A stretch of 64,000 nucleotides of DNA from an uncultured Myxococcales bacterium (GCA_903842345.1 CAIMLR010000042.1:21744-85743); one strand, 5' to 3'. Counted from the first letter of the stretch, positions 17,618 to 38,780 are shown. Notes: generated from the sequence alone by a model not told the origin. Numbers and translations: made by a program.

Positions 17618-17765
17618 ATTCTTTCCACACCACCCGGCGCGCGCGGCCCCGTTGCGGCGGATTCGTATCGCGGCGCGCCGTCCGCGTCAACTCCACTCGC
17701 ACCGAATCCGCCGGCGTGGCATCCTACACGCCCGATTCCGGCCGCTCCAGCCGTCAGGACTTCCC

Positions 17766-20700
17766 GTGCAGCCGTCCACTCCCGTCATCTCGCTCCGCGG
17801 CATTCGCCAGAACAACCTGCGCGGCTTCGATCTCGACCTGCCGCTTGGACAGTTGATCGTCATCACCGGCGTTTCCGGGTCGGGCAAGTCCTCGCTGGCA
17901 TTTGACACGCTGTATGCCGAGGGTCAGCGCCGGTACGTCGAATGTCTTTCGTCTTACGCCCGCCAGTTCATCGAGCGCATGGATCGCCCGCAGGTCGATG
18001 AAATCAGGGGCATCCTGCCATCCGTCGCGCTGCGCCAGGGCCGAACGATCCGCGCCGCGCGGGCCACGGTCGCCACGCTGACGGAGCTCGGCGAGCACTT
18101 TCGGATGCTGTTCGCCCACGGTTCGACGCCCGAGTGTCCCAAGTGCGGCGCGGCGGTGCAGCGGACTTCGCTCGGCGTGCTGGCCGATGCGCTGCTGGCT
18201 CACGCCGCGGGCCGCAAGGCCGCGATCACCTTTGAACTGCCTGTTCTCTCGACCCTTTCCGCCCAGACGGCCCTGCTCGGCTTGGCCGCCGCGGGCTACA
18301 CGCGGGCGTTCGAGGCGGGGCGCGCCCAACCATTGGTGGACCTCCTGACCGATGATCGCGTCGGCGTGCCGGTCCACGTGCTGCAGGACCGCCTGGTCGT
18401 GGATGCCGCGGAGCGCTCGCGGCTGTTTGATTCGCTGGAGCAGGCGATGCGCCGCGGGTCCGGCGCGGTGTCGATCTGGCTGGACGGCGAAGCTTTTGAG
18501 ATGAACGCGTTTGCCCGGATCGGCGCCTCCGCCGGGTTCTGGCAATTCCGCGCGACCGGCAGCTTGCGTTGCGCGACGTGCGCCACGGAGATCGAGCCGC
18601 CGTCGCCGCACCTCTTCAGCTTCAACTCGGCGGTGGGCGCATGCCCGGCGTGCAACGGTTTTGGCCGTTTGGCGGATCTCGACCTCGACCGCGTTGTGCC
18701 AGACGGCCGCAAGACGCTGAAGCAAGGCGCCATCAAGCCGTGGTCCACGGAATCGACGACGGATGAACGCCGCGATCTCGCGCGTTTCTGCGAGCGCATG
18801 GTCATCCCGATGGACGTCCCGTGGATTGCGCTCACGGCGGAACAGCGCGCGGCCATCGTCGCTGGCGAGAAAGGCAGCGTCCGCGCGGGCAAGTTCTACG
18901 GCATCCGCGGCTGGTTCAAGTGGCAGGAGAGCCGGACGTACAAGATGCACGTCCGCGTGCTGCTGGCGCGCTATCGCGCCTACGTGCCGTGCCCCATGTG
19001 CGAGGGCACGCGGCTGCGTGCGGAGGCGCGCGCGTGGAAATTGCAGGGCTGGAGCCTGCCGGAGTGGCTTGCCGCGACGCTGCGCGACGTGCAAGACCGA
19101 CTGCGGACGCTGCAGTTGGCGGAGATGGCCCAGGCCGCGCTGGAGCAGCCGCTGCGGGAAGTGCGCCAGCGAATCGAGTTCCTGGACGAGGTCGGCCTGC
19201 ACTACCTCTCGCTCGACCGGGCCGCGCGCACGCTGTCCGGCGGTGAACTGCAGCGCGTGCAGCTCGTCGCCGCGCTCGCGACTGGCATGAGCCAGGTGCT
19301 GTACGTGCTGGACGAGCCGTCCGTCGGCCTGCATCCGCGCGACAATGACCGGTTGCTGCGGATCCTCGAGCGGATGCGCACGGCGGGCAATACGGTCGTT
19401 GTTGTGGAACACGATCCGGCGCTGATGCTCGCGGCGGACACGATCATCGATCTCGGTCCGGGCGCGGGTTCCGAGGGCGGCGCACTGCAGTACTTTGGCC
19501 CGGCGACGGGGCTGGCGGCGGCGAAGGCTTGCCTGACGGCGGACTACCTGACCGGTCGGCGACAGGTGGATGTGGGCGACGAAGCGCCTTCCCTCCAGCA
19601 GTCCAAGCGCAAAGCTGCGATTCGCCAGCAAAAGTGGCTGACGATCCGCGAGCCGACGGCGCGCAACCTGCGCGGTCAGGATGTCCGCCTGCTGCAAGGC
19701 GCGCTGAACGCGGTGTGCGGCGTGTCCGGCTCGGGCAAGTCGACGCTGATTGAGGAAGTGCTGTACCGGCAGTTGCTGCGCCAGCGCGGCGAGTCGGTCG
19801 ACGAACCGGGCGCGTGCGCGGGCATCGACTGCGATCTGCCGATCGGCGAAGTCGTGCTCGTCGATCAGGAAATGCCGGCTGCCGCGAGCCGCGCCAATTG
19901 CGCGACCTACCTGAAAGTGTGGGACGCAATCCGCAGCCGGCTGGCCGAGGAACCGCTGGCTGTCGCACGCGGCTACACGCCCGCGACGTTCAGCTTCAAC
20001 CGCGAAGGCGGGCGATGCGCGGTGTGCGAAGGCCTCGGCTTCGAGACCGTCGACATGCAGTTTCTGAGCGACGTGCACATGACCTGCGAGGCTTGCGAAG
20101 GCCAGCGCTTTCGCACGGACGTCCTGCAAGTCCGCCACCGCGGCAAGAGCGCCGCAGACTTCCTGAACATGACGGCCGCCGAGGTCGCTCAGGAATTCGC
20201 CTTTGACGCGACGCTGGCCAATCCGATGCGGGCGCTGACGGAGCTCGGTTTGGGCTACCTGCGCTTGGGCCAACCGCTGTCCACGCTGTCCGGCGGCGAG
20301 TCGCAGCGCGTCAAGATCGCGTGGCATCTGCTGCAGGCGCGGACCAAGAATGCGCTGTTCCTGCTGGATGAGCCGTCGACCGGTCTGCACTTGCACGACG
20401 TGGCGATCCTGCTGAAGAACCTGCGGGCGCTGACGGCGGCGGGCAACACGGTCGTGCTCGTCGAGCATCACCTGGATCTGATCGCCGCCGCGGACCACGT
20501 CGTGGAATTGGGACCCGATGGCGGGCCGGCGGGCGGTCACGTGCTGTATCAGGGTGATGCGGAGGGGCTGGCGGAGCACGACACGCCGACGGCCGCACAC
20601 CTGCGGCGGCACAAGCTGGGCGCGCACTACCAGCGCGCGGCGGGGCTGGGCCTCGACACGGCGGAGTCGCTGCTGCTCGACGTCCAGCGCGACCCGGGCC

Positions 20701-23279
20701 ACGTCGCGGTGCGCGGTGCGCGCGTCCACAACCTGCGCAACATCTCGCTCGACGTGCCGCGCGACCGCTTTACGGTCGTCACGGGACTTTCGGGTTCGGG
20801 CAAATCCAGCCTCGCGTTCGACGTTGTGTTCGCGGAAGGTCAGCGGCGTTTTCTCGATTGCCTTTCGCCCTACGCGCGCCAGTATTTGCCGCCGGCGAGC
20901 CGCCCCGACGTCGAGAGCCTCGCGGGACTGCCGCCGACCGTCGCGATCGCCCAGCGCACGACGCGCGGCGGCACGCGGTCGACGGTCGCGACCCTCACGG
21001 ACATTTACCCGTACCTGCGCCTGCTCTACGCCCGCTGCGGCACGCAGCTTTGCCCCAAGTGCGGCGGCGCGGTTTCCGGCCAGACGGCGACGGACGTGGC
21101 CGACGCAATCACGGAGCGCTTTGGTCAGGCGCCGGTCTACGTGATGGCGCCGGCCGTGCGCGGCCGCAAGGGCCACCACCAAGGCATCGTCGATCGCGCG
21201 ATCGGGTTCAGTCACGCCTGGCTGCACGTCGACGGCGCGCTGGTGCCCATCGAGGCCGTGCCGCCGCTGCGGCGCTTCGTCGTGCATGACATCGATTTCG
21301 TCGTCGCGCGCATTCCCGGCGACGTGCCCAACCGCGCGGCGCGGATTGCCGAAGCCGTGGACATCGCGCTGGGTCTGGGTGACGGAACGGTGATGGCGCG
21401 AACGTCGGAGACGGCCGCCGTGCCGTGGTCGCTCCGGCGGCACTGTGGCCGCTGCGATATCTCCGTGGAGGCGCCGGATCCGCGGCTGTTCACGTTCACG
21501 TCGGCCGCGGGCTGGTGCAAGTCGTGCCAAGGGACCGGCATCGAGCCCGCGGTGGTCGCGGACAAGCCCAAGAAGCGCAAGAAAACCAAGGAAGACGGCA
21601 AGTCCACGGCCGATCTGGCAAAGTCCGGCCTGCCCGATGGCGGCGAGAAGTTGGACGAAGATGCCGTGCGGTTGGTGGAGGCCTGTCACGCGTGCCAAGG
21701 GAGCCGCTTGCGGCCGGAAGCGCGCTCCGTGCTTGTCGCGGGCCAGACAATCGACGTGGCCGTGCGCCAGGGCCCGGCAAAGCTGCAAACGTGGCTGGAG
21801 GCGGTGCGCTGGAACCGCCGTGATGCCCAGGTCGCCGATCCCATCGTCGCGGAAGTGGCCGCCCGCTGTGCGTTCCTGCAGCGCGTGGGCCTCGATTACC
21901 TGGCGCTCGGCCGCGCGGCGACGACCCTGTCCGGCGGCGAGAGCCAGCGCATTCGACTCGCGGCGCAATTGAGCTCCAACCTGCGCGGCGTGCTGTACGT
22001 GCTCGATGAGCCGACGATCGGCCTGCATCCCGCCGACAACGCCAAGGTCCTCGATGCGCTCGATGGCCTTGTGACGCGCGGCAACGGCTTGCTTGTCGTG
22101 GAACACGATGAGGAGACGATTCGGCGCGCGGACCACATCATTGAGCTCGGGCCGGGTGGCGGCAATACCGGCGGGCAGTTGGTGTTCCAGGGCACGCTGG
22201 CGGAATTGCTGGTGGCCAAGGACTCGCCCACGGGTCAGGCTTTGCGCGATCCGCACACGCGGCGCGTGCGCAAGGAGCCGCGTCCGGCCGCGGAGCACTT
22301 CATCACGGTGCGGGGCGCGCGCCACAACAACCTGCAAAACGTGACGGCAAAGTTCGCCCGCGGTCGCTTCAATGCAGTGACGGGCGTGTCAGGCTCCGGC
22401 AAGTCGACGCTGGTGCGGGATCTGCTGGTGCCGGTGGGCAACGCGATGCTGCAGGAGCAGGCGTTCGTCGCGGATCTGGACGGCATCGATGGCCTGACCG
22501 GCTTTGGCCGCATCGTGGAGGTGGACCAGAGCCCGATTGGCCGCACGCCGCGCAGCTGTCCGGCGACCTACATGGCGATTTTCGACGACCTCCGCGCGCT
22601 CTTCGCCAACCTGCCTGACGCCAAGGTGCGCGGACTGACCGCCAACAAGTTCAGCTTCAACACGGCGGGCGGGCGCTGCGAGACGTGCCTCGGCGCGGGC
22701 CAGGTGCGCGTGGAAATGAGCTTCCTGCCGACGGTCTTTGTGCCGTGCGAGGCGTGCCAGGGCCGGCGCTATCAGGAGCCGGTGCTGGCCGTGCGGCACA
22801 AGGGCGCGTCCATGGCCGACGTGCTGGCGATGTCGATGGCGGAAGCGGCCAACCACTTCGCCGCAGTGCGGGCGGTCGCGGCGCCGCTGGAGCTGGCGGT
22901 GCAGCTGGGCCTCGGCTACCTGACGCTGGGCCAGGGGAGCCACACGCTGTCAGGTGGCGAGGCGCAGCGCTTGAAGCTCATCCTCGAGCTGGCCAAGAAG
23001 CGGCGGACGGAGACGCTGTATGTGCTCGACGAGCCGTCGACGGGTCTGCACCTGGAGGACGTGCGCAAGCTGCTGGGCGTGCTGCACGCGCTGGTCGACC
23101 GCGGCGACACGCTTGTTGTCATCGAGCATCAGCTGGATATCGTGAAGGAGGCCGATTGGCTCGTCGATCTGGGCCCGGGTGCGGGCGAGAGCGGCGGTCA
23201 GCTGACGTGGCAGGGCGGTGTGCGGGAGCTCGTGAAGTCCAAGCTCAAGACGCCGACCGCGGTGGCACTGCGGGTCTAG
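17766..23279 (+). CDS. uvrA: Double-length excinuclease ABC subunit A (about 1837 aa)
   Basis: Four Walker A (G[VL]SGSGKS), four LSGGE signatures, four LDEP(S/T)xGLH and CxxC Zn fingers. GTG 17766 start. Confidence 0.93.
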
Positions 23280-26588: not shown

Positions 26589-26791
26589 TGCCTGCCTCAG
26601 CGGGTCGGTCTGCGCCCGCGCCACGGCCGATCACGATAGCCAAAGCGGCGCGGAAACGCGAGTTACGCATCGGTGCGCCCGCTCAACACTTTCTTGACCT
26701 GTTGGATGAGGCCGCCTAGCCTTGGCGATAACTGGCACAGTGTCGCATTTTGCGGCATTGCAGTTGGAAACGACCTTGGAGACCCTCCCGC

Positions 26792-27847
26792 ATGGCGGTC
26801 AAGAACGCAGTCGGCCTTGATATCGGCACCTCGTCGATCAAGGTTGCCCATGTCCAGGAGACCAAAAAAGGCGTCCAGCTGCTGGCGTTTGACACGATCA
26901 TGTTGCCGCCGGACACCATCCGCGACGGCCAGATCCTCAACGCGCCGCAACTGGTCCAGCGGATCCAGGAACTGTTCGCGCTCAACAAGATCAAGCACAA
27001 GCAGGTCGCCGTTTCGCTCTCCGGCCACTCCGTGATCATCAAGAAGATCTCGCTGCCAGAGATGACGCTCGCGGAGCTGGAAGACTCGATCCAGTGGGAA
27101 GCCGAGCAGTATATTCCTTTTGATATCAAAGACGTGAACGTCGACTTCCAGATCATCGATCCGCACGCCGGTCAGGCGCAGATGGACGTGCTGCTGGTGG
27201 CTGCCAAGAAAGCCGTGATCGAAGAGATGTGCGAAGTCGTGCGCGCCGCCAAGCTGGAGCCGGTGCTCGTGGATGTGGACGCTTTTGCGCTCTACAACGC
27301 GTTTGAGCTCAACTTTCCGATTCCGATGGACCAGACAGTCGCGCTCATCAACGTCGGCGCGTCGACGATCAACATCAACGTGGTGTCGGGCGGCATGACG
27401 TCCTTCACCCGCGACATCACGGTGGGCGGCAATCTGCTGACGGAAGAGATTTCCAAGCAATTCGCGGTGCCCTGGGAAGAAGCGGAGCACATGAAGACAA
27501 CGTCGGAAACGACGCTGTCCATGTCCGGCGTGCTGCGCGAAGTGCAGCGCATTTCGGGTCGCGTGTCAGAAGTGCTGATTGCTGAGATCCAGCGGTCGCT
27601 GGACTTCTTTGCCGCGACGGCGATCAACGCGGACATCAGCGCCGTGTATCTGTGTGGTGGCGCGGCGTTGCAGTCCGGGCTGATCGAAGGCATGGAGCGG
27701 CGCCTCGGCACGCACGTGCGCGCGCTCAACCCGTTCAACAACGTGGTGATCGACCCCAAGAAGTTCGATACCGCACTTCTGCAGCGCATGGCTCCTCTCG
27801 CCTCGGTGGCGATGGGGCTGGCCTTGCGTAAACCCGATGATCGGTAA
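26792..27847 (+). CDS. pilM: Type IV pilus assembly protein PilM
   Basis: VGLDIGTSSIK, QWEAEQYIPF, LINVGAS and LCGGAA; heads a pilMNOPQ operon. Confidence 0.95.
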   Translation: MAVKNAVGLDIGTSSIKVAHVQETKKGVQLLAFDTIMLPPDTIRDGQILNAPQLVQRIQELFALNKIKHKQVAVSLSGHSVIIKKISLPEMTLAELEDSIQWEAEQYIPFDIKDVNVDFQIIDPHAGQAQMDVLLVAAKKAVIEEMCEVVRAAKLEPVLVDVDAFALYNAFELNFPIPMDQTVALINVGASTININVVSGGMTSFTRDITVGGNLLTEEISKQFAVPWEEAEHMKTTSETTLSMSGVLREVQRISGRVSEVLIAEIQRSLDFFAATAINADISAVYLCGGAALQSGLIEGMERRLGTHVRALNPFNNVVIDPKKFDTALLQRMAPLASVAMGLALRKPDDR

Positions 27848-27862: not shown

Positions 27863-28951
27863 GTGCTGCTGATGATCCGGATCAACCTGCTGGGCAGAGC
27901 CAAGGGCCAAAAGGGCGGTAAGCGCAGCTTTACCCTGCCGCGCATTCCCAACGTGGGTTTGCTGCTCGCGCTGTTGATCCTGGTGATTGAAGGCGCGGTT
28001 GCGTTCCAGTGGTCGCAGCAGGCAGCGGACACGGCGAACAAGCTGGAGAGCAAGGGTCGCAAGCTGCGGGAAGAGGTCGACGACTTCGCGAAGGTCAAGA
28101 CGGAAGCCGACGAGCTCAAGCACAAGCTGGAAGAAAGCGGCAAAGAGAAGCTGATCTTTGACGAGCTGATCGCGGAGAAGATCGGCCCCGCCAACGCCTT
28201 GACGTACCTGTCCTTCATGCTCGCGCCGCGCAAGGAAGCCGAAGTCCCGGGCGATGAATTGAAGCAGATGGAGTTGGCAGGCTGGCGCGTCAATTGGCCG
28301 GGCGAGAAAGCGCGGGCGTGGCTGACGTCGATCAAGGAGCGCGATGGCGAAGTGACGCTTGTCGGCGGCGCGGTGGATCACGGCGACGTGGCGGAGGTCG
28401 CGCGGCGTCTGGAGGCGAGCGCGCATTTCCGCGAGATGAAGCTCGTGTCGCAAGAGCGCAAGGTCGACAACCAGTTGGGCGTCACCTACATCGAATTTAC
28501 GATTCGCGGCGCGATGATCTATCTGGTCGATCCGTACAAACCCGCTGGCGCGGAAGGCGAACCGCCGCCGCAAGCTGCAGATGCGGATGCCGACGCGACT
28601 TCTGGCGATGGCAGCGCTGCTGGCGATGCTGAAGATGGCGTAACGGTCCTGAAATCCGCGTTGCTCCCGCCCGCCGATGCCGCCAATGGCGAAGTGGACG
28701 CCGGCCCGACGGACGTCGATGCGCAGGCACCTGAGACGAAAGAAGAGAGGGACGCCGGCCCGCCGCCCATCGTGCCCAAGCCCGCAGCGCCAGCCGCCGC
28801 GGCCGAACCGGAGCGCAAGCCCGCCACCGCCCCGCTTTTGCAGGAAGCCGTAGAACCGCCGCCCGCCGATCGCGCCGCCGACCCGGGTGATCCGGGCGCA
28901 GCACCCGCACCCTCAGCCCCGTCCGCCCCCGCTGGCGGCGAAAACCCATAA
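27863..28951 (+). CDS. pilN: Type IV pilus assembly protein PilN with a long Pro/Ala/acidic tail
   Basis: IRINLL PilM-binding motif, TM, coiled coil and PilN core. Confidence 0.88.
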   Translation: MLLMIRINLLGRAKGQKGGKRSFTLPRIPNVGLLLALLILVIEGAVAFQWSQQAADTANKLESKGRKLREEVDDFAKVKTEADELKHKLEESGKEKLIFDELIAEKIGPANALTYLSFMLAPRKEAEVPGDELKQMELAGWRVNWPGEKARAWLTSIKERDGEVTLVGGAVDHGDVAEVARRLEASAHFREMKLVSQERKVDNQLGVTYIEFTIRGAMIYLVDPYKPAGAEGEPPPQAADADADATSGDGSAAGDAEDGVTVLKSALLPPADAANGEVDAGPTDVDAQAPETKEERDAGPPPIVPKPAAPAAAAEPERKPATAPLLQEAVEPPPADRAADPGDPGAAPAPSAPSAPAGGENP

Positions 28952-28961
28952 GGAGCAGCGC

Positions 28962-29696
28962 ATGGACCAGTTCATGAAACTGCCACCTGGCCAAAAAGCC
29001 GCCGTCCTCGCGGCGGTGTTGGCCGTGATTGGTCTGGGCATGTACTTCTTGCTCGTCGACCCGCAGTTGGGCCGGGCCGCGGCCGCGCGTGCGACGCTGC
29101 AGAAGACGGAGAAGGAACTCTCTGACCTCAAGGCTGAAGCGAGCCAGGAAGAGTTGGCCAAGCTGCGCAAACAGAACGACGAACTGAACGAGAAGAACAA
29201 GGAAGCCAAGAAGATGCTGCCGGCCTCGGAAGAGGTGCCTGACCTCATCGACTCCGTGCAAAACGATGCGGTTCACGTGGGTTTGCAGGTCCGACGCTTT
29301 GACCGGCTCAAAGAGCAGAATCAGGATATGTACCTGGCGATCCCGATCCGCATGGTCGTGGACGGCAAGATGAACGACCTGATCCGCTTCCTGCGGATCT
29401 ACGCCGGCAATGACCGGCGCGTCGTGCACATCAAGGAACTGACGATCGAACAGACGGCGCCGGACGCGGAAGTCATCAAGAAGAAGATCGCGGCCTCGCA
29501 GCCGGACGGCAAGGCCTCCCAGCGCGCCGTGATCACGCCCGAAGATCGGCTGCTGCAGGCGATCGAGGAAGCGGAGTTGGTGTATGATCTCGTGACGGTC
29601 CGCGCGACGTTCACGGCGTACGCCTACACGTGGACGGGCAAGCCGGCGCCGCAGGGCACCGCCATTCCCGTTCGCAACAACCGCAAGCGCACGTAG
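28962..29696 (+). CDS. pilO: Type IV pilus assembly protein PilO
   Basis: TM, coiled coil, LPASEEVPDLI and YLAIPIRMVVDG; AGGAG RBS; synteny. Confidence 0.88.
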   Translation: MDQFMKLPPGQKAAVLAAVLAVIGLGMYFLLVDPQLGRAAAARATLQKTEKELSDLKAEASQEELAKLRKQNDELNEKNKEAKKMLPASEEVPDLIDSVQNDAVHVGLQVRRFDRLKEQNQDMYLAIPIRMVVDGKMNDLIRFLRIYAGNDRRVVHIKELTIEQTAPDAEVIKKKIAASQPDGKASQRAVITPEDRLLQAIEEAELVYDLVTVRATFTAYAYTWTGKPAPQGTAIPVRNNRKRT

Positions 29697-29714: not shown

Positions 29715-30383
29715 ATGGTCCTGACGCAGAAGCCCAATTTGCCCCAGCCCGCCGCCCGCCGCTCCACGGCGGCTTTGGTGTTGTTGGCGTTCTTGGCGGC
29801 GTGCGGTGGCAGTGCGCCGGAAAAAAAGCCAGCGCCAGACGAGAGGCCCAAGCCCAAGGCGCCCGTGCCGGAGCCCGCGGAAGGCGGCGCGTCGATCGAT
29901 GGCTGGATCGTGCTGGGCGAAAATCCCAAATGGAAGCCGATCAAGCCGCTGTTTGAAACGTATGCGAAGCGCGAAGTGACGGGGCTGCACAACCCGATGC
30001 GCTCGAATCTGACGGCGTTTGTCGAGAAGCCCGTGCCGACCGCGACGCGCGCGGAAGACGAAGTCGTCGACAAGCCGAAGGAAAAATTGGAGGACACGCC
30101 GTTCACGCGCGTCAAACTCGGCACCCTGACGCTGATTGTGCTTGTCACCGGCGTCGCCCAGCCCAAGGCAGTGCTGCTGGACGGTGAGGGCAACCAACTC
30201 GTCGTCATGCGCGGCGACCACCTCGGTTCAGAAGGCGGCGTCGTCAAGGCGATTACCCAATACGAACTGCAAGTTTCTGTCCCGGGCGAACCTGACGTCG
30301 TCAAGTCGCTCAAGCCGCCGCTGAATCCAGTGGAAGAACTCGACGCCGAGACTCAAGGTGCCGGCAAGAAGCCCGAACTGTGA
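29715..30383 (+). CDS. pilP: Type IV pilus lipoprotein PilP
   Basis: Lipobox LAAC; NPMRS and LTLIVLV..PKAVLLDGEG..VMRGDHLGSEGGVVKAI; synteny. Confidence 0.85.
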   Translation: MVLTQKPNLPQPAARRSTAALVLLAFLAACGGSAPEKKPAPDERPKPKAPVPEPAEGGASIDGWIVLGENPKWKPIKPLFETYAKREVTGLHNPMRSNLTAFVEKPVPTATRAEDEVVDKPKEKLEDTPFTRVKLGTLTLIVLVTGVAQPKAVLLDGEGNQLVVMRGDHLGSEGGVVKAITQYELQVSVPGEPDVVKSLKPPLNPVEELDAETQGAGKKPEL

Positions 30384-30401: not shown

Positions 30402-33400
30402 ATGAAGATCACAATGCTGCAAAAGACGACCCCGCCGTTGCTGGACCGCAAGTCCGCACTTTCGCGGGCCATTAGCCAATTGCTCGTCGTCGCGATGGCG
30501 CTGCCGGCGCCGATGGCGACCGCGTGGGCCAACGAGCCCGGGCGCGCGACGCAAGCGGTCGTGTCCCTGCTGGGCATCGACGTGCAGGAAGCGCCGCAGA
30601 CGACCGTCATCACGGTGCACGGCAGCACCGTTCCGACCTTCACGACCTACCGGCTGGACAAGCCGCAACGGCTGATCGTCGACGTCGTCGGCGCCAACGT
30701 GACCGCCAATGAGCCGCGCTTCGTCCAAAATGGCGTGGTGCGTTCCGTGGAAGCGGTGCCTTTCAAGCGCGGTGCGGCCAATTTTGGCCGGGTGATCGTG
30801 ACATTTGAGCAGGACGCGCTGTACCACGTGCGGGCGGAGGGCAATAGCGTCGTCATCGTGGTGGACGGCAGCGATCGCAAGCTGAATCAGGCGCAGACCG
30901 CACAGGTGGCCGCCGCCGAAGAAGCGGCGCGCACGGCGGCGCAGCGCGAGCGGGATTTGGCCGCGGAACTGCGGAAGTCGCGGCAGCGGGAGGAAGACGC
31001 GCAGACCGCGCAGCACGACGCCCAGGTGGCGCAGCGCAAACTGCAAGACGACCTGGATGCCCTGAAGCAGCAGGCGGGCGACAAAGCCGCGCTGGAAGCC
31101 AAGCAGGCGGAGATCAGCCAGTCGGCGGCGGCGTTGGACGCGGCGAATCAACGGCTCAAAGAAGAGCAGGACGCGGCCAAGAAGCTGCGCGAACAGCTCA
31201 ATCAAGAACGCCAGAGCCTGGCGGCGGTGATCGCCCAGCGCCAGTCGGAAGAAGCGCGGATTGAACTGCTGCGCCAGAAGATTACGGAATTGCAGCGGGA
31301 TACGCAGCGCAAGGATGATGCGCGGATCGCCGGATTGCAGGCGGAGCTCGAGCGCGCGCGCAAGCAGGCGGAGCAGTTGCGGACCGATGCGCGGGACATC
31401 GCGGGATCGCGGCGCACGGCGCAAGCGGAAGAAGTCGCGCACTTGAAGAAGGTGCTGGCCGGCAAGGACGCGGAGTTGCAGGGCGCATTGGCGCGGTCAG
31501 ATGCGGCGTCCAAGGCGCAGGCGGCGCAGCTCAAGCAGGAGCTCGGTCAGGCGCGCGATCAGTTGAAGCAGACGCAAACGGCGCTGGAACGCGCGGCCAA
31601 GGCCGATGCCGAGCGCGAGCTGGCAGAGCGCAAATGGCGCGAGGCGGAGCAGCGGGCCGTGCGCGCGGAGCAGGAGCTGGCGGCGCGGACGGTCGAACTG
31701 TCCAAGAGCCGGGCGGAGACGGCGGATTTGGCGCGCCAGAAGAAAGAAGCCGACGCGCGAGCGACGGAAGTGGCCCGGCTGCTGACCGAGCGCGAGCGCG
31801 AGATTGAGGGCGTGAAGCTGGCGCTGAAGGAACGCGAGTCCCTGCTGACGGCGGAGCTGGCCGCGGCCAAGGATCGCGAGGCGGCAGCGGCCAAGGCCGG
31901 TCGGCAGACGGAAGCCGAGCAGGCGGCGCGCGAGCGGACGGAACTGGAAAAGCGCCAGAGCGCGCTGACCGGCGAACTGGCTGTGCGCGAGAAAGAACTT
32001 GTGCAGGCGCGCCACGATGCGGCGGACAACCAGCAGGCCCGCGCCCAAGCGGAACAGGAAGCAGAGCGGTTGCGCGCGGAGCTGGCCAATCGCGAGCAGG
32101 CGCTGCGGAGCCTGCAACAGGGCAAGTCGACGGCCGACCAGAAGAAGCTGGCGGAGGCGGAAGCGCAAGTGCAGGCGGCGCGCGCGCAACTGCAGTCGCA
32201 GCTGGCGGAACGCGACCAGAAGATGGCGGCGCTGCAGAAGCAGGTGACCGGCGAACTGGCGCAGATGCACAAGCAGCTGGAAGGCCTGCGCGGCGATCTG
32301 GCCGCGGCGAAGCAGGAGACGCGGGACGCGCGTGAGACGGCCCAGACGCGCGAACTGGAACTCCAGGCGACCAAGGCGAGCGCGCAGGAACGCGAGAAAG
32401 CGCTGCAGGCGGCGAAAGAGACGGCGGACAATCGCGCGGCGCAAGTGGCGCGGCTGTTGGACGAGCGCGAACGGCAGATTGGCGCGATGCGCACCGACCT
32501 GCAGACCCGCGAGGCGACGCTGACGGCCGAGCTGACGCAGGCCAAAGCGCGTGAAGTGGCGGCGCAGAAAGCCGGCAAGAAAGCGGAAGTGGAAGCGGCG
32601 GCCAAGACGCGGACTGCGCTGGAAAAAGAACAGTCGGCGCTGCGCAAGGACCTGGCGTCCCGCGAGCGCGATCTGGCGAGTGCGCGACAGGAAGCGGACA
32701 AGAACGCGACGGCGCGGCGGCAGGCCGAGCAGCAGGCGGAGACGCTGCGGCAGGAACTGGCCCACCGCGAGACGGAACTGGAGACGCTGCGCGCGGCAGG
32801 CGACGGCGCGGCGCGCAAGAAGCTGGGTGACGCGGAAGCGCGCGTTGCGGCGACCCGGCAGCAGTTGCAGGTGCAGTTGGCGGATCGCGATCGCCAGTTG
32901 GCGGCGACCGAGCAGCGCTTGCAGGCGCAGATGGACCAGGTCAAGGCGGAGTTGGCGCGGACCAAGGCGGAGTCGGCGCGCAAGGACCGCGAGCTGACGG
33001 CGGCCCGCGAGCAGGAAGCGCGGCAGAAGAAGCTGGCGGACCAGGTGTCGACGCAGTTGCACGATCGCGAAGAAGAGATCGCGGGCCTGCGCAAGTCCGT
33101 GCAGGCGCGCGAGGCCAGGCTGCAGGCAGCGATGACGTCCGCGCGTGAGGCCGAACACAAGGCGCAGCGCGAAGGTCGGGCGCAGGATGCGGCCAAGGCC
33201 AAGGCGGAGCGCACGCGGCTGGAAGTGCAGCAGGCAGACCTGCGCAAGGAACTGACGGCGCAACAGGCGAGCCTCGCGGACGCGCGGCAGGAAGCGGCGC
33301 GGCAGGCGGAAGCGCGCCAGAAGGCGGAAGCGGACGCGCGGCGCCTGCAATCGGCACTTGCCGATCGCGAGCAGGCTTTGGCGGCGCTGCAGAGCACGTC

Positions 33401-36400
33401 GGCGTCGGCGGCAGAGCTGGAACACGCGCGCAAGTCCGTGGAAGAAGCGCGGGCGCGGCTGAGCGAGCAGGAAGTTGCGCAGGCGGCCCGGCTGGCGGAA
33501 ATGCAGACGCAGTTTGACGGCCGGCTGGCCAAGATGCAGGGCGAAATGCTGGCGGCACACGCCCGCGAACTCGCGGATCTGCGGGCTGAGCGGGAAGCGC
33601 GGGAAAAGCAGTCGCAGGAGCGCGCGGCGCGTGTGGAAGGGCTGCTGAAGGATCGCGAGAGCGAGCTCAAGCGCCTGCAGGATGAAGTGAAAGTGCGCGA
33701 GATGACGCTCGCGGCGCAGCTGGAAGACGCCAAGGCGCGCGAGCAGGAAGCGTCGGCCAAGGGCCAGGAAGCCGAGGCGCGCAAGGCCGCGGTCGATCGC
33801 CAGAAGCTGGAAACGGCGATGGCGCGGCTGCAGGACGACGTGAAGGCGCATGAGCTCGCGCTGGCATCAGCGCAGCAGGATGCCAAGGCGCAAGCGGATG
33901 CCCGCGCTCAGGCGGAACAGCAGGTGCAGTCGCTGACCGTGGCGCTGCGCGAACGCGAACAGGCGCTTGCGTCGGCGCGGCAGTCCGGCGGCACGAACGC
34001 GGGTCGCGTGGCTGAAGCGCAGGCGGATCTGGACAAGGCGCAGCTGGAGCATTCTGCGGCGCTGGCGGCGCGCGACGCGCAGATCCAGAAGCTGGAGCAG
34101 GACGTGGAAGCGCGCATCGCGCAGGTACGCGAGGAGTTGGCGGTCGAGCACAAGAAACGGGAAGCGGCGCTGGCGCAGCAGATGGAGAAGCAGAGCGAGC
34201 AGTATGAAGCGCGCATTGCGATGACCGAAGCGCAGGCGCAGAAGGCGAGCGAGCATGAGCAGAAGCTCTCGACCTTGCTTTCCCAGCGGGAACGCGAGCT
34301 GAAGGCGCTGCAGACGCAGCTCGGCGAGCGGCTGGCCAATCTGGACGCGGAGACGGCGGACGCCAAAGCGCGCGAGCTGGCGGCACAGAAATCGGGACAG
34401 ACGCAGGCGGCGGCCGCGGCGGTGCGCGACCAGAAGCGGCTGCAGCGCGAGCTGGGCGAGGCGCGCAAGCAGATGCGCGAGCGCGAAGTGGCCATCAACA
34501 CGGCGCGGACCGAGGCGATCAGCCAGCAGAAAGCGCGCGAAGAGACCGACAAGCGGGCGCGGGCGCTGACGGCGACGCTGGAAGCGCGCGCGGCGGAGCT
34601 GCAGGAGTTGCAGCGCGATTCCAAGGCGGATCGGGCGCGCGTGGCGGCGGCTGAGAAGGCCGTGACGGAAGCGAAGGCGCGGCTGGAAGCGACGGAGCGG
34701 GCGCGGGCGGACGCGGATCGCGCGACGCAGAAGCGACTCGAACAGGAAATTGCCAGCGTGCGCAAGCAGATGGCGGCGGAAGCGGCGGCGCGTGAGAAGG
34801 CGCTGGCGGACCAGTACGCGGCGCGCGAGTCGGAGCTGCAGTCGCAGTTGAAGCAGTCCGAGACGCGGCGCAAGGCGGCGGAATCGACGGCGGCCAAGAC
34901 CGCGCCGATGGACGATTACCTGAAGCGCCAGCAGGCGCGCATCGCCGTGCTGGAATCGCGCGCCGATCGCGAGCGCGAGTCGCGGCAGGAAGTGGCCAAG
35001 CTGGCGCAGGACGAGCGCAAGCGCGCGGAAGAACTGCAGCAGCAGCTGGCCGAGGAGCGCGCGGAAAAGGCGCACAAGGATCAGGAGCTGGAGACGCTGC
35101 GGCGGCAGGCGGCGCAGGCGGACGCGGCGGCCAAGAAGGCGCAGCAGCGGGACGTGGACAAGCAGGCGGCCGCGGCGGCGGAGAAGCAGAAGACCCTGGC
35201 GGCGCAAGCCAAGGCCAAGGATGAAGACGGGCTGCGGCGCGAAGCGGGGGCTGAACGGCAGCGGGCGCGGCAGGATCGCGGCGGCGATGTGCAGGGCACG
35301 CTGATCCAGGACGTTGCGATCACGGCGGAAGGCAAGGAGCGCGGCCACCTCGTGCTGCCGCTCAACGCGCAGATCAAGGCGAGCCAGGTTGTGGTGTTGA
35401 GCCGCGATGCGCACCGCCTCGTGCTGCGGGTGACCGGCGCGCGTGTGCCGGAACGGCTGCAGAAGACCTACGACACAGGCGGGCTGCAGGGTCCGATGGA
35501 CCGCGTGACGGTCTTCTCGCCGGAAGGCCAGAAAGAAGAAGTGCGCGTTGTCGTGGACCTGAATGAAGGCGTGACCGACCGCCTGCGCGTGGAAGGTGAC
35601 CGCGTCCTGTGGGATTTTGAGCGGCTTGACGCCCGCGCGACGAACGTGAAGTCGGCGTTTGCCCAGAAGGGCGGCGCGGTCAAGACGGGCGGCGAAGGCC
35701 TGGCGGTTGCGCCGCAGCCGGCCCAAGCGGCTGAAGATCCCAGTGGCGGCGGCGGTGCTCCCCCGAGCGGCGTGGGCGGCGGATCAGCGGCGGAGTCGCA
35801 GGGCGTCAACGCTGACCCGATTCGCGCACCGTGGCGCAAAGCGCGCCGCTACACCGGCAAGCGCATCAACCTGACCATCAAGGACGCCGACATCCAGCAC
35901 GTGCTGACGTTCCTCGCCAAGGAAGGCAAGGTCAACATCATCGCCGGTCCGGAAGTCAGCGGCAAAGTCACGTTCCACCTGGAGAACATCCCGTGGGACC
36001 TCGCGCTGGACGTGATCCTGCGCGCCCGCGACCTCGACTACGTGCGCCAATCCGGCGTCATTCGCGTCAGCACGCGTGAAGCGCTGCGCAAAGAGTTTGA
36101 ACAGGAGGTAGAAAGGCGACAGAAGCTCGAAGACGTCAAGCAGCTCGTCGTCCGGATCATCCCGGTAAACTACAGCCAAGCGACTGAAATCGCGCGCCAA
36201 GCCAAGGAACTGAACTCCAAGAAGGGCACGTCCTCGGTCGACACGCGCACCAACGCGCTCATCGTCAAGGACACGGAGGAGCACGTTGCGGCGATCGAAG
36301 AGATGGTCCGCAAGCTCGACACGCAGACCCCGCAGGTGCTGATTGAAGCGCGCATCGTGGAAGCGCAGAGTTCGTTCAGCCGCGACGTCGGCGTCCAGTG

Positions 36401-37151
36401 GGGCGGCAACTTCGCGGCCTCCAGCTTGTACGGCAATGAAACGGGCCTGTCGTTCCCATCGGCGCTCGGCATCGCGGGCGGCGCGGACTCCAACGGCGGC
36501 ACCGCCGGCCTCGGCAGCTCTGTCCCCATCACGACGCCAAACTACGCGGTCAACTTGCCAGCGGCCGTCGGTAGCGGCGCGGGCGGCGCGATTGGCTTCT
36601 CGCTCGGTTCGCTCGGCGGCGCCGCCAACTTGAATCTGCGTCTGTCGGCCGCGGAAACGGAAGGTACCGTCAAGATCGTTTCCAGTCCCAAGGTGCTGAC
36701 GCTGGACAACACGACGGCGACCATCAGCCAAGGCGTGCAGATCCCGATCTCGGTGGTCAGCGCCCAAGGCGTGCAGACGCGCTTCTTTGACGCCCGCTTG
36801 CTGCTGTCGGCCACGCCGCACATCACGCAGGACGGCAACATCGCGATGAAGGTCCGCATCACCAAGAACGAGCCGGACTTCTCCAATCGCGCGGCGGACG
36901 GCAATCCCTCCGTGAACACGCGTGAAGCGCAGACGGACCTGCTGCTCGGCGACGGCGAGACGACGGTCATCGGCGGCATCTATACGCGCTCGACCTCGAC
37001 GGCCATCAAGAAGGTGCCGATCCTCGGCGACCTGCCCTTCATCGGCGTGCTGTTCCGCAGCCACTCCGATCAGGACAAGCGCACGGAACTGCTCATCTTC
37101 ATCACGCCGCGCATCGTCAATCGTTCGACCGCCATTTCCGTGGGCAAATAG
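30402..37151 (+). CDS. pilQ: Giant type IV pilus secretin PilQ (2249 aa) with a ~1470-aa coiled-coil insertion
   Basis: Signal peptide (AWA), AMIN (aa ~53-156), coiled coil (~160-1630), second AMIN (~1634-1740), N0 (YTGKRINL), N3 and secretin (PQVLIEARIVE...ELLIFITPRI). Confidence 0.93.
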   Translation: MKITMLQKTTPPLLDRKSALSRAISQLLVVAMALPAPMATAWANEPGRATQAVVSLLGIDVQEAPQTTVITVHGSTVPTFTTYRLDKPQRLIVDVVGANVTANEPRFVQNGVVRSVEAVPFKRGAANFGRVIVTFEQDALYHVRAEGNSVVIVVDGSDRKLNQAQTAQVAAAEEAARTAAQRERDLAAELRKSRQREEDAQTAQHDAQVAQRKLQDDLDALKQQAGDKAALEAKQAEISQSAAALDAANQRLKEEQDAAKKLREQLNQERQSLAAVIAQRQSEEARIELLRQKITELQRDTQRKDDARIAGLQAELERARKQAEQLRTDARDIAGSRRTAQAEEVAHLKKVLAGKDAELQGALARSDAASKAQAAQLKQELGQARDQLKQTQTALERAAKADAERELAERKWREAEQRAVRAEQELAARTVELSKSRAETADLARQKKEADARATEVARLLTEREREIEGVKLALKERESLLTAELAAAKDREAAAAKAGRQTEAEQAARERTELEKRQSALTGELAVREKELVQARHDAADNQQARAQAEQEAERLRAELANREQALRSLQQGKSTADQKKLAEAEAQVQAARAQLQSQLAERDQKMAALQKQVTGELAQMHKQLEGLRGDLAAAKQETRDARETAQTRELELQATKASAQEREKALQAAKETADNRAAQVARLLDERERQIGAMRTDLQTREATLTAELTQAKAREVAAQKAGKKAEVEAAAKTRTALEKEQSALRKDLASRERDLASARQEADKNATARRQAEQQAETLRQELAHRETELETLRAAGDGAARKKLGDAEARVAATRQQLQVQLADRDRQLAATEQRLQAQMDQVKAELARTKAESARKDRELTAAREQEARQKKLADQVSTQLHDREEEIAGLRKSVQAREARLQAAMTSAREAEHKAQREGRAQDAAKAKAERTRLEVQQADLRKELTAQQASLADARQEAARQAEARQKAEADARRLQSALADREQALAALQSTSASAAELEHARKSVEEARARLSEQEVAQAARLAEMQTQFDGRLAKMQGEMLAAHARELADLRAEREAREKQSQERAARVEGLLKDRESELKRLQDEVKVREMTLAAQLEDAKAREQEASAKGQEAEARKAAVDRQKLETAMARLQDDVKAHELALASAQQDAKAQADARAQAEQQVQSLTVALREREQALASARQSGGTNAGRVAEAQADLDKAQLEHSAALAARDAQIQKLEQDVEARIAQVREELAVEHKKREAALAQQMEKQSEQYEARIAMTEAQAQKASEHEQKLSTLLSQRERELKALQTQLGERLANLDAETADAKARELAAQKSGQTQAAAAAVRDQKRLQRELGEARKQMREREVAINTARTEAISQQKAREETDKRARALTATLEARAAELQELQRDSKADRARVAAAEKAVTEAKARLEATERARADADRATQKRLEQEIASVRKQMAAEAAAREKALADQYAARESELQSQLKQSETRRKAAESTAAKTAPMDDYLKRQQARIAVLESRADRERESRQEVAKLAQDERKRAEELQQQLAEERAEKAHKDQELETLRRQAAQADAAAKKAQQRDVDKQAAAAAEKQKTLAAQAKAKDEDGLRREAGAERQRARQDRGGDVQGTLIQDVAITAEGKERGHLVLPLNAQIKASQVVVLSRDAHRLVLRVTGARVPERLQKTYDTGGLQGPMDRVTVFSPEGQKEEVRVVVDLNEGVTDRLRVEGDRVLWDFERLDARATNVKSAFAQKGGAVKTGGEGLAVAPQPAQAAEDPSGGGGAPPSGVGGGSAAESQGVNADPIRAPWRKARRYTGKRINLTIKDADIQHVLTFLAKEGKVNIIAGPEVSGKVTFHLENIPWDLALDVILRARDLDYVRQSGVIRVSTREALRKEFEQEVERRQKLEDVKQLVVRIIPVNYSQATEIARQAKELNSKKGTSSVDTRTNALIVKDTEEHVAAIEEMVRKLDTQTPQVLIEARIVEAQSSFSRDVGVQWGGNFAASSLYGNETGLSFPSALGIAGGADSNGGTAGLGSSVPITTPNYAVNLPAAVGSGAGGAIGFSLGSLGGAANLNLRLSAAETEGTVKIVSSPKVLTLDNTTATISQGVQIPISVVSAQGVQTRFFDARLLLSATPHITQDGNIAMKVRITKNEPDFSNRAADGNPSVNTREAQTDLLLGDGETTVIGGIYTRSTSTAIKKVPILGDLPFIGVLFRSHSDQDKRTELLIFITPRIVNRSTAISVGK
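31749..34860 (+). repeat. Five diverged tandem protein-level repeats (196-225 aa) inside pilQ
   Basis: Anchor motif [LQ]Lxx(R/E)ExE(I/L) at 31779, 32454, 33054, 33642 and 34275. Each is followed by AKARE-x5-G-like and LAxREQAL-like motifs. Confidence 0.8.
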
Positions 37152-37154
37152 CGC

Positions 37155-38780
37155 ATGGCGAACGTGGTGCTGGTCGGCATGCCCGCGTCGGGCAAGACGT
37201 CCGTGGGCGCAAGCGTCGCGGCTTCGTTGGGGCTGACTTTTGTCGACCTGGACGCGCACATCGGCCAGATCGCCGGGCTCAACGTGGCGGACCTGTTGCG
37301 GCGCGAGGGCGAAACCACGTTCCGGCTGCGGGAGGCTGAGGCGCTCGATCGCGCGCTGGAAGGCGACGGCAAGCTGCTGGCGAGCGGCGGCGGTTCCCCG
37401 TGTTTTCACGACGGCATGAACCGGATGCGCGCCGCGGCGCACGTGATTTGGCTGGACGCGCCGGTGGACGCACTTGTGGAGCGAACGCTGCAGGACGGCG
37501 ACCGGCCGCTTCTGGGCCACACGCGGCTGGAGCAGACCGTGGCGCTGCGGGATTTGGCTGAGCGGCGCACACCGACCTACGCCCGCGCGCATCGCCGGGT
37601 GGACGCGACCCAACCGCTGCCGGCCGTGGTTCGGCAGGTTCAGGCGGCGCTGCGGCCGTCCGTCCAAGCGACGATCGCTTTTGAAGGCGTGGAGCATCCG
37701 CTCGTCATCGACGATGGGCATGTGAGCGACGCGGCGGATGCGCTGGCGGAGCTCGCCGGAAGCGGCAAGATCGCCCTCATCGTCGACCGCAAGGTGCGCG
37801 CGCAGGCCGAGCCGCTGGAAGCGATGCTCAAGGCGCGCGGCATCATGACCGTGCTGCTGGAAGTGCCGGGCGGTGAAAAGTCCAAGGATCTGCGGACGGC
37901 GGCAAAACTGTGGCAGGATCTGGCGCAGCATCAGTTTGACCGTTCGGACCTGCTCGTGGCGATTGGCGGGGGCGCGACGACGGACGTCGGCGGCTTTGTC
38001 GCGGCGACCTGGCTGCGTGGCGTGCGCCACGTCGCCATGCCGACGACCGTGCTGGCGATGGCGGACGCGAGCGTCGGTGGCAAGACGGCGATCGACCTGA
38101 ACGTGGGCAAGAACCTGGTTGGCGCATTCCATCCGCCAGCGCTGGTCTGGCTGGCGCTCGGTGCGCTGGAGACGCTGCCCGGCGTGGAATGGCGCAGTGG
38201 TCTGGCGGAAGTCGCGAAGATCTTTGTGGCGTTGGACGCCGATGCCTGGCGCGCGCTGTTGCGGGATGCCAAGTCGCTGCGGCGGCGCTCCGTGGCCGCG
38301 CTCAAGCCGCACGTGCAGCGCGCGGTCGAGCTCAAGGCGGAAATCGTCGCCCGCGATCCGCGGGAGCAAGGCGATCGCGCACTCCTGAACTTGGGACACA
38401 CGCTGGGGCACGCGCTGGAGGTCGATTCCGGCTTTACGCTGCGGCACGGCGACGCGGTGGCGCTGGGGCTGATCGCGGCGGCGGAGCTGTCCGTTGCGCA
38501 CGGCACGGCCGATGCGAACTTGGCCGTGGAACTGCGCGCTGGCTTTCAAGCGCTGGATCTGCCGACCCAATGGGAAGCGATGGCGACGCCCGCGGTGCTT
38601 GGGCGGCTCGGTCAGGACAAGAAGATGCGCGGCGAGCTGCTGCGGTTTGTCGAAGTGGCAGCAATCGGACGGGCGGTTGTTCGTCCTTGCCGCGTCAAGG
38701 AACTCGAGAGCATGCTGGCGGCCTTGGCGGCCCATGCGCAACGGCCGGCGGTTGCATCCGTCGGCGGGATGCGGAGGTAG
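37155..38780 (+). CDS. aroKB: Fused shikimate kinase / 3-dehydroquinate synthase
   Basis: GMPASGKT...FRLRE...SGGG (AroK), then GGGATTDVGGF, DASVGGKTA, KNLVGAFH, LNLGHTLGHALE and HGDAV (AroB). Confidence 0.93.
   Translation: MANVVLVGMPASGKTSVGASVAASLGLTFVDLDAHIGQIAGLNVADLLRREGETTFRLREAEALDRALEGDGKLLASGGGSPCFHDGMNRMRAAAHVIWLDAPVDALVERTLQDGDRPLLGHTRLEQTVALRDLAERRTPTYARAHRRVDATQPLPAVVRQVQAALRPSVQATIAFEGVEHPLVIDDGHVSDAADALAELAGSGKIALIVDRKVRAQAEPLEAMLKARGIMTVLLEVPGGEKSKDLRTAAKLWQDLAQHQFDRSDLLVAIGGGATTDVGGFVAATWLRGVRHVAMPTTVLAMADASVGGKTAIDLNVGKNLVGAFHPPALVWLALGALETLPGVEWRSGLAEVAKIFVALDADAWRALLRDAKSLRRRSVAALKPHVQRAVELKAEIVARDPREQGDRALLNLGHTLGHALEVDSGFTLRHGDAVALGLIAAAELSVAHGTADANLAVELRAGFQALDLPTQWEAMATPAVLGRLGQDKKMRGELLRFVEVAAIGRAVVRPCRVKELESMLAALAAHAQRPAVASVGGMRR

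Follow-up and report, generated by a model that had tools for sequence, protein, structure and literature searches.

PilQ, the secretin of type IVa pili, is among the best-studied outer-membrane machines. It is a 12-15-mer, the N-terminal part of secretins is periplasmic, and its AMIN region is usually pictured as a small number of wall-binding domains strung on flexible linkers. In Myxococcus xanthus, three AMIN domains are carried on flexible linkers, and they bind septal and polar peptidoglycan (PMC10653833). Here we describe a PilQ with a different N-terminal plan. The window analysed, meaning the whole stretch of DNA, comprises 64,000 nucleotides of an uncultured Myxococcales bacterium (GCA_903842345.1, CAIMLR010000042.1:21744-85743); the gene is a complete open reading frame (ORF) on its plus strand, at 30402-37151 counted from the first letter of the window, and encodes a secretin of 2249 amino acids. 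The protein shares N0, the N-domain, the pore and N-terminal AMIN domains with M. xanthus PilQ (901 residues; 3jc8/3jc9) and with other type IVa pilus secretins (Pseudomonas aeruginosa, 6ve2; Neisseria, 4av2). It is, however, 2.5 times longer than the M. xanthus protein, and in place of three AMIN domains (PMC10653833) it has two, separated by 1,460 helical residues. Within this insert lie five homologous modules of about 200 residues. The reading that we favour, with some hesitation, is that they make up a five-module rod, a spectrin-like chain of helical bundles that would act as a wall-anchored strut or tether of variable length.

The gene and the parts of its product, with residue numbers from the translation, are as follows.

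30402..37151, plus strand: pilQ, assigned by its Pfam domains and by the match to the M. xanthus PilQ structure.
30402..30530, plus strand: putative signal peptide, residues 1-43 (...ATAWA/NEP), read from the translation.
30576..30857, plus strand: AMIN domain 1, residues 59-152 (Pfam AMIN, E 7.5e-11).
30897..31685, plus strand: non-repeat helical segment, here called "pre", residues 166-428 (no match to the module hidden Markov model (HMM); z <= 1.6 against the modules).
31686..32360, plus strand: module M1, residues 429-653, Gly 500 (HMM 231.8 bits).
32361..32960, plus strand: module M2, residues 654-853, Gly 725 (HMM 227.9 bits; 49.5% identity to M1).
32961..33548, plus strand: module M3, residues 854-1049, Gly 925 (HMM 210.6 bits).
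33549..34181, plus strand: module M4, residues 1050-1260, Gly 1121 (HMM 240.1 bits; the unit chosen for structure prediction with AlphaFold2).
34182..34814, plus strand: module M5, residues 1261-1471, Gly 1332 (HMM 231.2 bits).
34815..35279, plus strand: non-repeat helical segment, here called "post", residues 1472-1626 (no module-HMM match; family-specific).
35295..35627, plus strand: AMIN domain 2, residues ~1632-1742 (Pfam AMIN, E 3.3e-5, this piece scanned alone).
35628..35846, plus strand: flexible linker rich in Gly, Pro and Ala, residues 1743-1815, seen in the translation.
35877..36335, plus strand: N0/STN, residues 1826-1891, and Secretin_N, residues 1917-1978 (Pfam STN, E 8.7e-7; Secretin_N, E 6.7e-12).
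36648..37118, plus strand: secretin pore domain, residues 2083-2239 (Pfam Secretin PF00263, E 8.5e-48).

The Pfam domains of the ORF, its pil operon context and its match to 3jc8 establish its product as PilQ, the secretin of type IVa pili, in an uncultured freshwater myxobacterium. The pore domain scored 162.6 bits against a cut-off of 27.5, and STN (29.1 bits) and Secretin_N (45.9 bits) both lie upstream of it. M. xanthus PilQ 3jc8 was the nearest solved structure (E 4.9e-140); the alignment is confined to the region from N0 to the C-terminus, which corresponds to residues 474-897 of the M. xanthus protein. AMIN domain 2 is assigned on its own Pfam match (residues ~1652-1725; 24.4 bits against a cut-off of 20.5, segment scanned alone) and not on likeness to AMIN domain 1, the profiles of the two domains having aligned with a probability of 57% over 43 columns only (hhalign). 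By homology with described secretins, this PilQ presumably forms a 12-15-mer outer-membrane pilus channel.

The insert between the two AMIN domains (residues 166-1626) is proline-free and helical, with a composition of 22% A, 13% E, 12% R, 12% Q, 10% L and 7% K. A preliminary description of the window had proposed that it contains five homologous units of about 200 residues, marked by two series of motifs with anchors 225, 200, 196 and 211 residues apart. All ten motifs were found at the proposed places in the translation of 30402-37151: the first series starts at residues 489, 714, 914, 1110 and 1321, the second (LANREQAL, LAHRETEL, LADREQAL, LREREQAL and LEARAAEL) at residues 561, 786, 986, 1182 and 1393, and both show the same spacing. 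The repeat region, originally placed at 31749-34860, is indeed there, although its ends at residues 429 and 1471 (window 31686-34814) are shifted by roughly 50-60 nucleotides at each side; the modules measure 196-225 residues.

Modules were cut 60 residues before each anchor and compared by Smith-Waterman alignment, with 200 composition-preserving shuffles per pair. Scores between modules were 218-430, against 105-118 +/- 11 in the shuffles; all ten module pairs gave z = 9.1-27.8, and the observed score was equalled in 0 of 200 shuffles. The flanks of the array (residues 170-428 and 1472-1700), which served as a compositional control from the same protein, gave z = -0.2 to 4.0 against the modules. 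The self-similarity is thus far above compositional bias, the explanation on which the proposal of five units might have foundered. MAFFT aligned the five copies nearly without gaps across 195-211 residues, at 29-50% identity. BLASTP of the whole protein against itself returned the identity match only, and neither Smith-Waterman comparison nor the module HMM found a sixth, degenerate module in "pre" or "post". In a profile of 41 modules (A1), L33, R36 and G72 are invariant and sixteen further positions are at least 90% conserved. The invariant glycine occurs once in each of the 41 modules (in the window protein at residues 500, 725, 925, 1121 and 1332). Of the "conserved Gly breaks" reported earlier, this one stands; the second break in the module is a loop without a conserved glycine.

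At the DNA level, the modules are 49-60% identical to one another, and 49-53% at third positions, which are saturated. Tandem Repeats Finder reported no long-period DNA repeat, as expected at 50-60% DNA identity. Metagenome comparisons were made with DNA runs from independent ponds and two studies. One contig from pond metagenome run X1 spans 30402-36834 with zero differences, and contigs from further pond samples and from the second study likewise match the array. The low DNA identity and the identical array in independent metagenomes show that the array is not an assembly duplication, a conclusion already drawn from divergence in the preliminary description. Apparent "joints" in the contig matching were set aside, as they were based on 20-25-nucleotide side matches of unrelated contigs.

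The fold was assessed on AlphaFold2 (AF2) single-chain models judged by DSSP, by the predicted local distance difference test (pLDDT), by the predicted template-modelling score (pTM) and by Foldseek. Module M4, modelled with the A1 alignment (pLDDT 92.9, pTM 0.81), has helices at residues 2-70, 74-145 and 151-210. Its first turn, at residues 71-73, lies at the invariant glycine, which is the end of the first motif, and its second turn, at residues 146-150, directly follows the second motif (LA.RE.AL). A two-module model of M4-M5, built on the in-register alignment A3 (pLDDT 86.8, pTM 0.49), has helices at residues 2-70, 74-145, 151-282, 285-356 and 362-421, so that helix 151-282 is unbroken across the junction. 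Each module is accordingly predicted to be an antiparallel bundle of three ~70-residue helices, and the chain to be spectrin-like, with helix 3 of each module and helix 1 of its successor forming one continuous helix. A rise of 0.15 nm per residue over 70 residues gives ~10 nm per module; five modules would measure ~50 nm, to which "pre" (263 residues) and "post" (155 residues) would add roughly 20-60 nm. These models do not bear out the earlier suggestion of hinged helical segments of about 30 nm. The unit is predicted to fold to a three-helix bundle with the invariant glycine in a 3-residue hairpin turn, and the five modules would reach ~50 nm, roughly a third of the 150 nm that units of 30 nm would give.

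Evidence independent of AF2 comes from the pattern of insertions and deletions (indels) among 55 modules. These are concentrated at columns 12-22, 143-150 and 190-202, and columns 23-142 are indel-free except for two single cases. This is what one would expect of a hairpin of constant length with junction helices that vary. Foldseek aligned ~200 of the 211 residues of M4 to the designed three-helix bundle 4tql and to BAR monomers, at template-modelling (TM) scores of 0.43-0.58 and 9-18% identity, with a root-mean-square deviation of 5-6 Å for the closest BAR matches. No match was significant (E 0.03-0.4, the best 0.03), so that they show shape and not homology; the M4-M5 tandem again gave single-module BAR-like matches only. 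Conserved large hydrophobics and Ala (Leu/Ala) recur at 3-4-7 spacing through all three helices, a heptad pattern, and a search of the module profile against the PDB found no solved homologue and no spectrin, the matches being all classical coiled coils.

The heptad-like a/d spacing of Leu and Ala and the coiled-coil matches, obtained from the PDB and the protein library alike, are also what recommends another arrangement, in which the helices of the insert stay straight and form parallel pairs or bundles with those of adjacent PilQ protomers. Cables of ~150-220 nm would result, with the glycine and the second break as hinges. The insert has the composition usual for long coiled coils, a 12-15-mer offers parallel partners, and this state is invisible to AF2 monomer runs; because only single chains were modelled, an extended inter-protomer coiled coil stays a serious rival. 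It sits poorly with the pTM of 0.81 for a compact single module, with the invariant glycine in a 3-residue break followed by a second break of 5 residues, and with three helices that are matched in length, the first hairpin being of fixed length and indel-free. A cable of ~200 nm, moreover, approaches the size of a cell pole and would have two wall-binding ends. On balance we consider this arrangement unlikely.

The module was next of interest for its distribution. A word-seeded search with residues 429-1472 returned 12 proteins, all of them PilQs of 1400-2476 residues from uncultured Myxococcales-like metagenome-assembled genomes (MAGs), and a scan of GTDB species genomes returned five close relatives, which are freshwater-lake MAGs. 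The module HMM found five copies in the window PilQ, with none in the flanks, and five also in several relatives. Six copies were found in L004, a relative with 79% identity, six in P0005, which holds two nearly identical module copies, and four in P0012. The GTDB order to which the organism belongs comprises 37 genomes in one family and 14 genera, and 33 of the 37 carry the module at ~4-8 matches per genome; the maximum among intact ORFs is seven, in G018 and in G014. The matches listed for the order fall in PilQ frames of 2100-2830 residues where the gene is complete, and the five matches that the organism's own genome contains are all within the window pilQ ORF. The number of units thus varies among relatives, as had been anticipated. 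In genus g4, whose genomes are 94-95% complete, the module is absent and PilQ has 1123-1159 residues. Two g4 loci (L026 and L033, in genomes G008 and G010) encode a ~330-residue helical insert with nothing detectable in common with that of the window; their AMIN domain 1, AMIN domain 2 and pore are homologous to those of the window PilQ, which makes them a natural short-insert control.

When the A1 profile was run against 1.84 billion representative proteins, only five matched at E <= 1e-10. Three are long proteins, all giant PilQs; the other two, of 314 and 166 residues and without a Pfam match, are taken to be fragments. Within the reach of these searches, the 200-residue module is private to this one PilQ family. 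An origin of the module outside PilQ was considered and rejected, the weaker library matches being generic, non-specific coiled coils of kinesin, tropomyosin and crescentin type.

A wider survey used the C-terminal 549 residues of PilQ across 301 Myxococcota genomes. Other families of the same class frequently have PilQ frames of 1500-2200 residues, which are sporadic elsewhere; in most other Myxococcota classes PilQ has 730-1200 residues. The long PilQs that were sampled share the layout AMIN, long helical insert, AMIN, secretin, and those from sister families gave no match to the module HMM, to "pre" or to "post". Non-homologous helical inserts of 300-1900 residues occupy the inter-AMIN position in many Myxococcota lineages, and this occurrence of unrelated inserts marks the position as a recurrent site of helical expansion. 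One such protein, from another family of the same class (L021, genome G090), has a PilQ ORF of 2089 residues whose insert lacks the 200-residue module; it contains ~15 tandem repeats of ~33 residues with a consensus near AELxERTRIAEDEARKAAAREQKxS, and also has a duplicated block of ~190 residues.

To trace the history of the modules, 55 of them, drawn from 12 proteins, were placed in a maximum-likelihood tree. The last modules of all 12 proteins form one clade (support 100/99), as do the second-to-last (M4) modules of nine proteins (99/97) and the M3-position modules of eight (100/97). All other modules, of M1/M2 type, fall in one further clade (95/92), in which copies group by lineage (P0005 n1/n2/n3, P0006 n1/n2, P0008 n1-n3 and L004 n2/n3). 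This topology indicates that the C-terminal part of the array is old and fixed while its N-terminal end keeps gaining copies, and the C-terminal modules are positionally orthologous across genera. The earlier characterization of all five modules as ancient therefore holds for the C-terminal ones, with their positional clades, and fails for the M1/M2 type, which includes lineage-specific duplications. Close relatives also differ in the linker that separates M1 from M2, which ranges from 0 to ~60 residues. L001 (MAG CAINLT010000094.1) and L005 have an extra 20-60 residues at the M1/M2 junction; the extra piece of L001 matches helix 1 of the module only (HMM positions 8-70), and is a partial duplication that would lengthen the junction helix.

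Selection was estimated from the ratio of nonsynonymous to synonymous substitution rates (dN/dS) between the window pilQ and three congeners (dS 0.5-1.1). The ratio was 0.09-0.11 in the modules, 0.03-0.06 in "pre", 0.13-0.24 in "post", 0.01-0.10 in the AMIN domains (0.01-0.02 in AMIN domain 1 alone) and 0.06-0.08 in the N0-secretin region. As the values for the modules are comparable to those for the pore, the insert is under purifying selection and is not neutral filler. "Pre" is its most conserved part (92-96% identity among congeners), and among the sampled PilQs homologues of "pre" and "post" were detected only within the family. The strong conservation of "pre" hints at a specific binding partner.

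A specific partner of "pre" would suit a periplasmic cage or lattice, in which modules pair laterally, as BAR monomers do, with those of adjacent protomers or adjacent secretins, into a collar around the pilus machine or into a net that links machines at the pole. The best structural look-alikes of the module are indeed BAR monomers, which act as dimers, and each ring would offer 12-15 arms. The BAR matches, however, are non-significant (E >= 0.09) at 9-18% identity, any long three-helix bundle would produce them, and no partner gene is evident in the operon. We regard such a lattice as improbable, more so than the inter-protomer cable.

The array had also been proposed to act as a length-tunable ruler. 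As a ruler of the envelope, a rod perpendicular to the membranes would set or span an unusually wide gap, either from the outer membrane to the wall or from the outer to the inner membrane, and its module number would be tuned to envelope thickness. There are precedents: in E. coli and Salmonella the width of the periplasm is set by the length of Lpp, and the PilQ of Thermus has additional N-domains with which it reaches across a wide periplasm. Copy number does vary among genera. Neither the size of TolC homologues nor the length of PilN and PilO, however, gave any sign of an unusually wide periplasm. The TolC homologues of the organism's own genome are of ordinary size (432-559 residues) with full-length outer-membrane efflux protein (OEP) repeats, the coiled coils of PilN and PilO are not elongated, nor are their periplasmic regions, and the Pfam match of PilO is unremarkable. 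A rod at least 50 nm long, as predicted here, with a wall-binding domain at each end could not stand across a normal periplasm. In genus g4, a member of this family, PilQ measures just 1123-1159 residues, and congeners differ by a whole module, a step hard to match by coordinated change in every other trans-envelope machine. The ruler is thus unsupported, and we give it very little credence. Just as remote is a neutral, expandable linker, in which helical filler is tolerated between the AMIN domains and grows by slippage or unequal crossing-over: the non-homologous inserts of 300-1900 residues at this position in other lineages and the flexible linkers that join the AMIN domains of M. xanthus (PMC10653833) would agree with it, but it is largely refuted by the selection data (in the modules dN/dS is ~0.1, in "pre" 0.03-0.06, levels as low as those of the pore) and conflicts with the positional orthology of modules across genera, with their invariant residues and with the presence of intact ORFs in 33 genomes.

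We therefore return to a wall-anchored strut or tether made of bundles. The periplasmic location, the AMIN domains at both rod ends and the length of the rod together favour arms that lie along the sacculus. Each of the 12-15 protomers would hold out a strut or tether roughly along the sacculus, AMIN domain 1 would fix the pilus port to wall sites tens of nanometres away, and the reach would differ between lineages as modules are added to the array, or lost from it, at its N-terminal end. Likely roles would be load-spreading or elastic anchoring against pilus retraction, and/or the spacing or positioning of pilus machines; load-spreading, elasticity and machine spacing are all speculation. A bolder version, about which we are distinctly doubtful, would see a periplasmic "spectrin-like skeleton" at the pilus port in this order, and, with different helical sequences, across much of the class. 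Each ring would then carry 12-15 elastic arms of 70-100 nm with the distal AMIN domain pinned to the sacculus; these would buffer or spread a retraction load of >100 pN and set machine spacing at the pole, their reach being tuned by 10-nm N-terminal modules.

Several points weigh against the strut or tether. Its fold is a single-chain prediction, which cannot show inter-protomer coiled coils, and AlphaFold2 has a tendency to make long helices double back; the tandem model reached a pTM of only 0.49, and no Foldseek match was significant, the best having an E of 0.03. Peptidoglycan binding by these two AMIN domains is assumed from their membership of the family. Sister families of the same class carry long inter-AMIN helical inserts without detectable similarity to the module, which suggests that the three-helix module may not be essential to function.

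The genes around pilQ are as follows.

26750..27847, plus strand: pilM (Pfam PilM_2, E 5.3e-70).
27863..28951, plus strand: pilN, 362 residues (Pfam PilN, E 3e-10; translation).
28887..29696, plus strand: pilO, true start uncertain (Pfam PilO, E 7.6e-20).
29715..30383, plus strand: probable pilP lipoprotein with a LAAC lipobox (weak Pfam PilP match, E 0.0032, below the cut-off; gene position; translation).
37155..38780, plus strand: aroK-aroB fusion, 541 residues (Pfam SKI and DHQ_synthase).

The order pilM-pilN-pilO-pilP-pilQ, followed by aroK/aroB, is the classical pilMNOPQ-aroKB arrangement. Shikimate kinase and 3-dehydroquinate synthase are encoded here in one ORF, which starts 4 nucleotides past the pilQ stop. 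PilN owes its 362 residues to a C-terminal tail of ~130 residues (residues ~225-362) that is rich in Pro, Ala, Asp and Glu and seemingly disordered; its membrane-proximal coiled coil is of ordinary, short length. Elsewhere in the window, an ORF of 1875 residues at 17652-23279 on the plus strand has multiple ABC_tran, two UvrA_inter and one UvrA_DNA-bind Pfam matches; at ~2 times the length of UvrA, it may be a UvrA-like ATPase that has been duplicated or fused in tandem. Besides the window PilQ, only one secretin is present in the organism's own genome (5.85 Mb, 95.7% complete), at G000:C36:365418-365996 (L008/L009), in an ORF of ~780-800 residues that is probably a GspD-type secretin of type II secretion. 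The same genome has a TolC-type OEP pair at G000:C30:36529-37782 in an open frame of 1547 residues, ~3 times the usual size, which could be a fusion or a read-through.

Among the closest known systems outside the secretins are spectrin repeats (PF00435) and bacterial spectrin-like EzrA, whose tandem antiparallel three-helix bundles with a shared continuous helix match the topology predicted here. The spectrin and EzrA Pfam models gave no match to the whole protein at E <= 0.01. A spectrin repeat has ~106 residues, as against ~211 for the module with its ~70-residue helices, and spectrin and EzrA are cytoplasmic whereas the PilQ rod would be periplasmic; the resemblance is one of design, in predicted topology, and does not show descent. 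BAR monomers and the designed bundle 4tql resemble the module in shape only: no BAR domain was found by Pfam, and the Foldseek values (E 0.09-0.4, TM at most 0.58) fall short of significant similarity. OmpM/SlpA-type tethers combine an S-layer homology (SLH) domain, a long coiled-coil stalk and an outer-membrane beta-barrel, and the length of this stalk, like that of Lpp, matters for envelope geometry. Common to these tethers and to the window PilQ are a wall-binding domain, a long helical stalk and an outer-membrane protein. The stalks of OmpM/SlpA and Lpp, however, are trimeric parallel coiled coils that stand perpendicular to the wall and have one wall-binding end; the PilQ rod has an AMIN domain at both ends, and its chained bundles are predicted to be intramolecular.

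Fusions of the AMIN domain with TolA-like charged helices have been described in delta-proteobacteria (architecture viii of de Souza et al. 2008; PMC2572700). These periplasmic proteins, from the same broad group as the window PilQ, have an AMIN domain followed by a long charged helical segment. The class was described without a secretin (PMC2572700), whereas the helices of the window protein sit between two AMIN domains of a PilQ and are built from a defined repeat. We found no description in the literature of helical inserts in PilQ. What is new here is a defined 200-residue module, predicted to be a three-helix bundle, its exclusivity to one family, and an array in which positional orthology is combined with a dynamic N-terminal end. 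In place of a few wall-binding domains on flexible linkers, a whole order keeps more than 1000 helical residues at the inter-AMIN site, under selection comparable to that on the pore and with a module number that changes between genera. The ~211-residue module is compact and well predicted, and makes the role of wall-anchor length testable. If the proposed structure is correct, the bundle chain would place a rod of spectrin style in the periplasm of a bacterium, and would be a new way of coupling the force-generating pilus machine to the cell wall.

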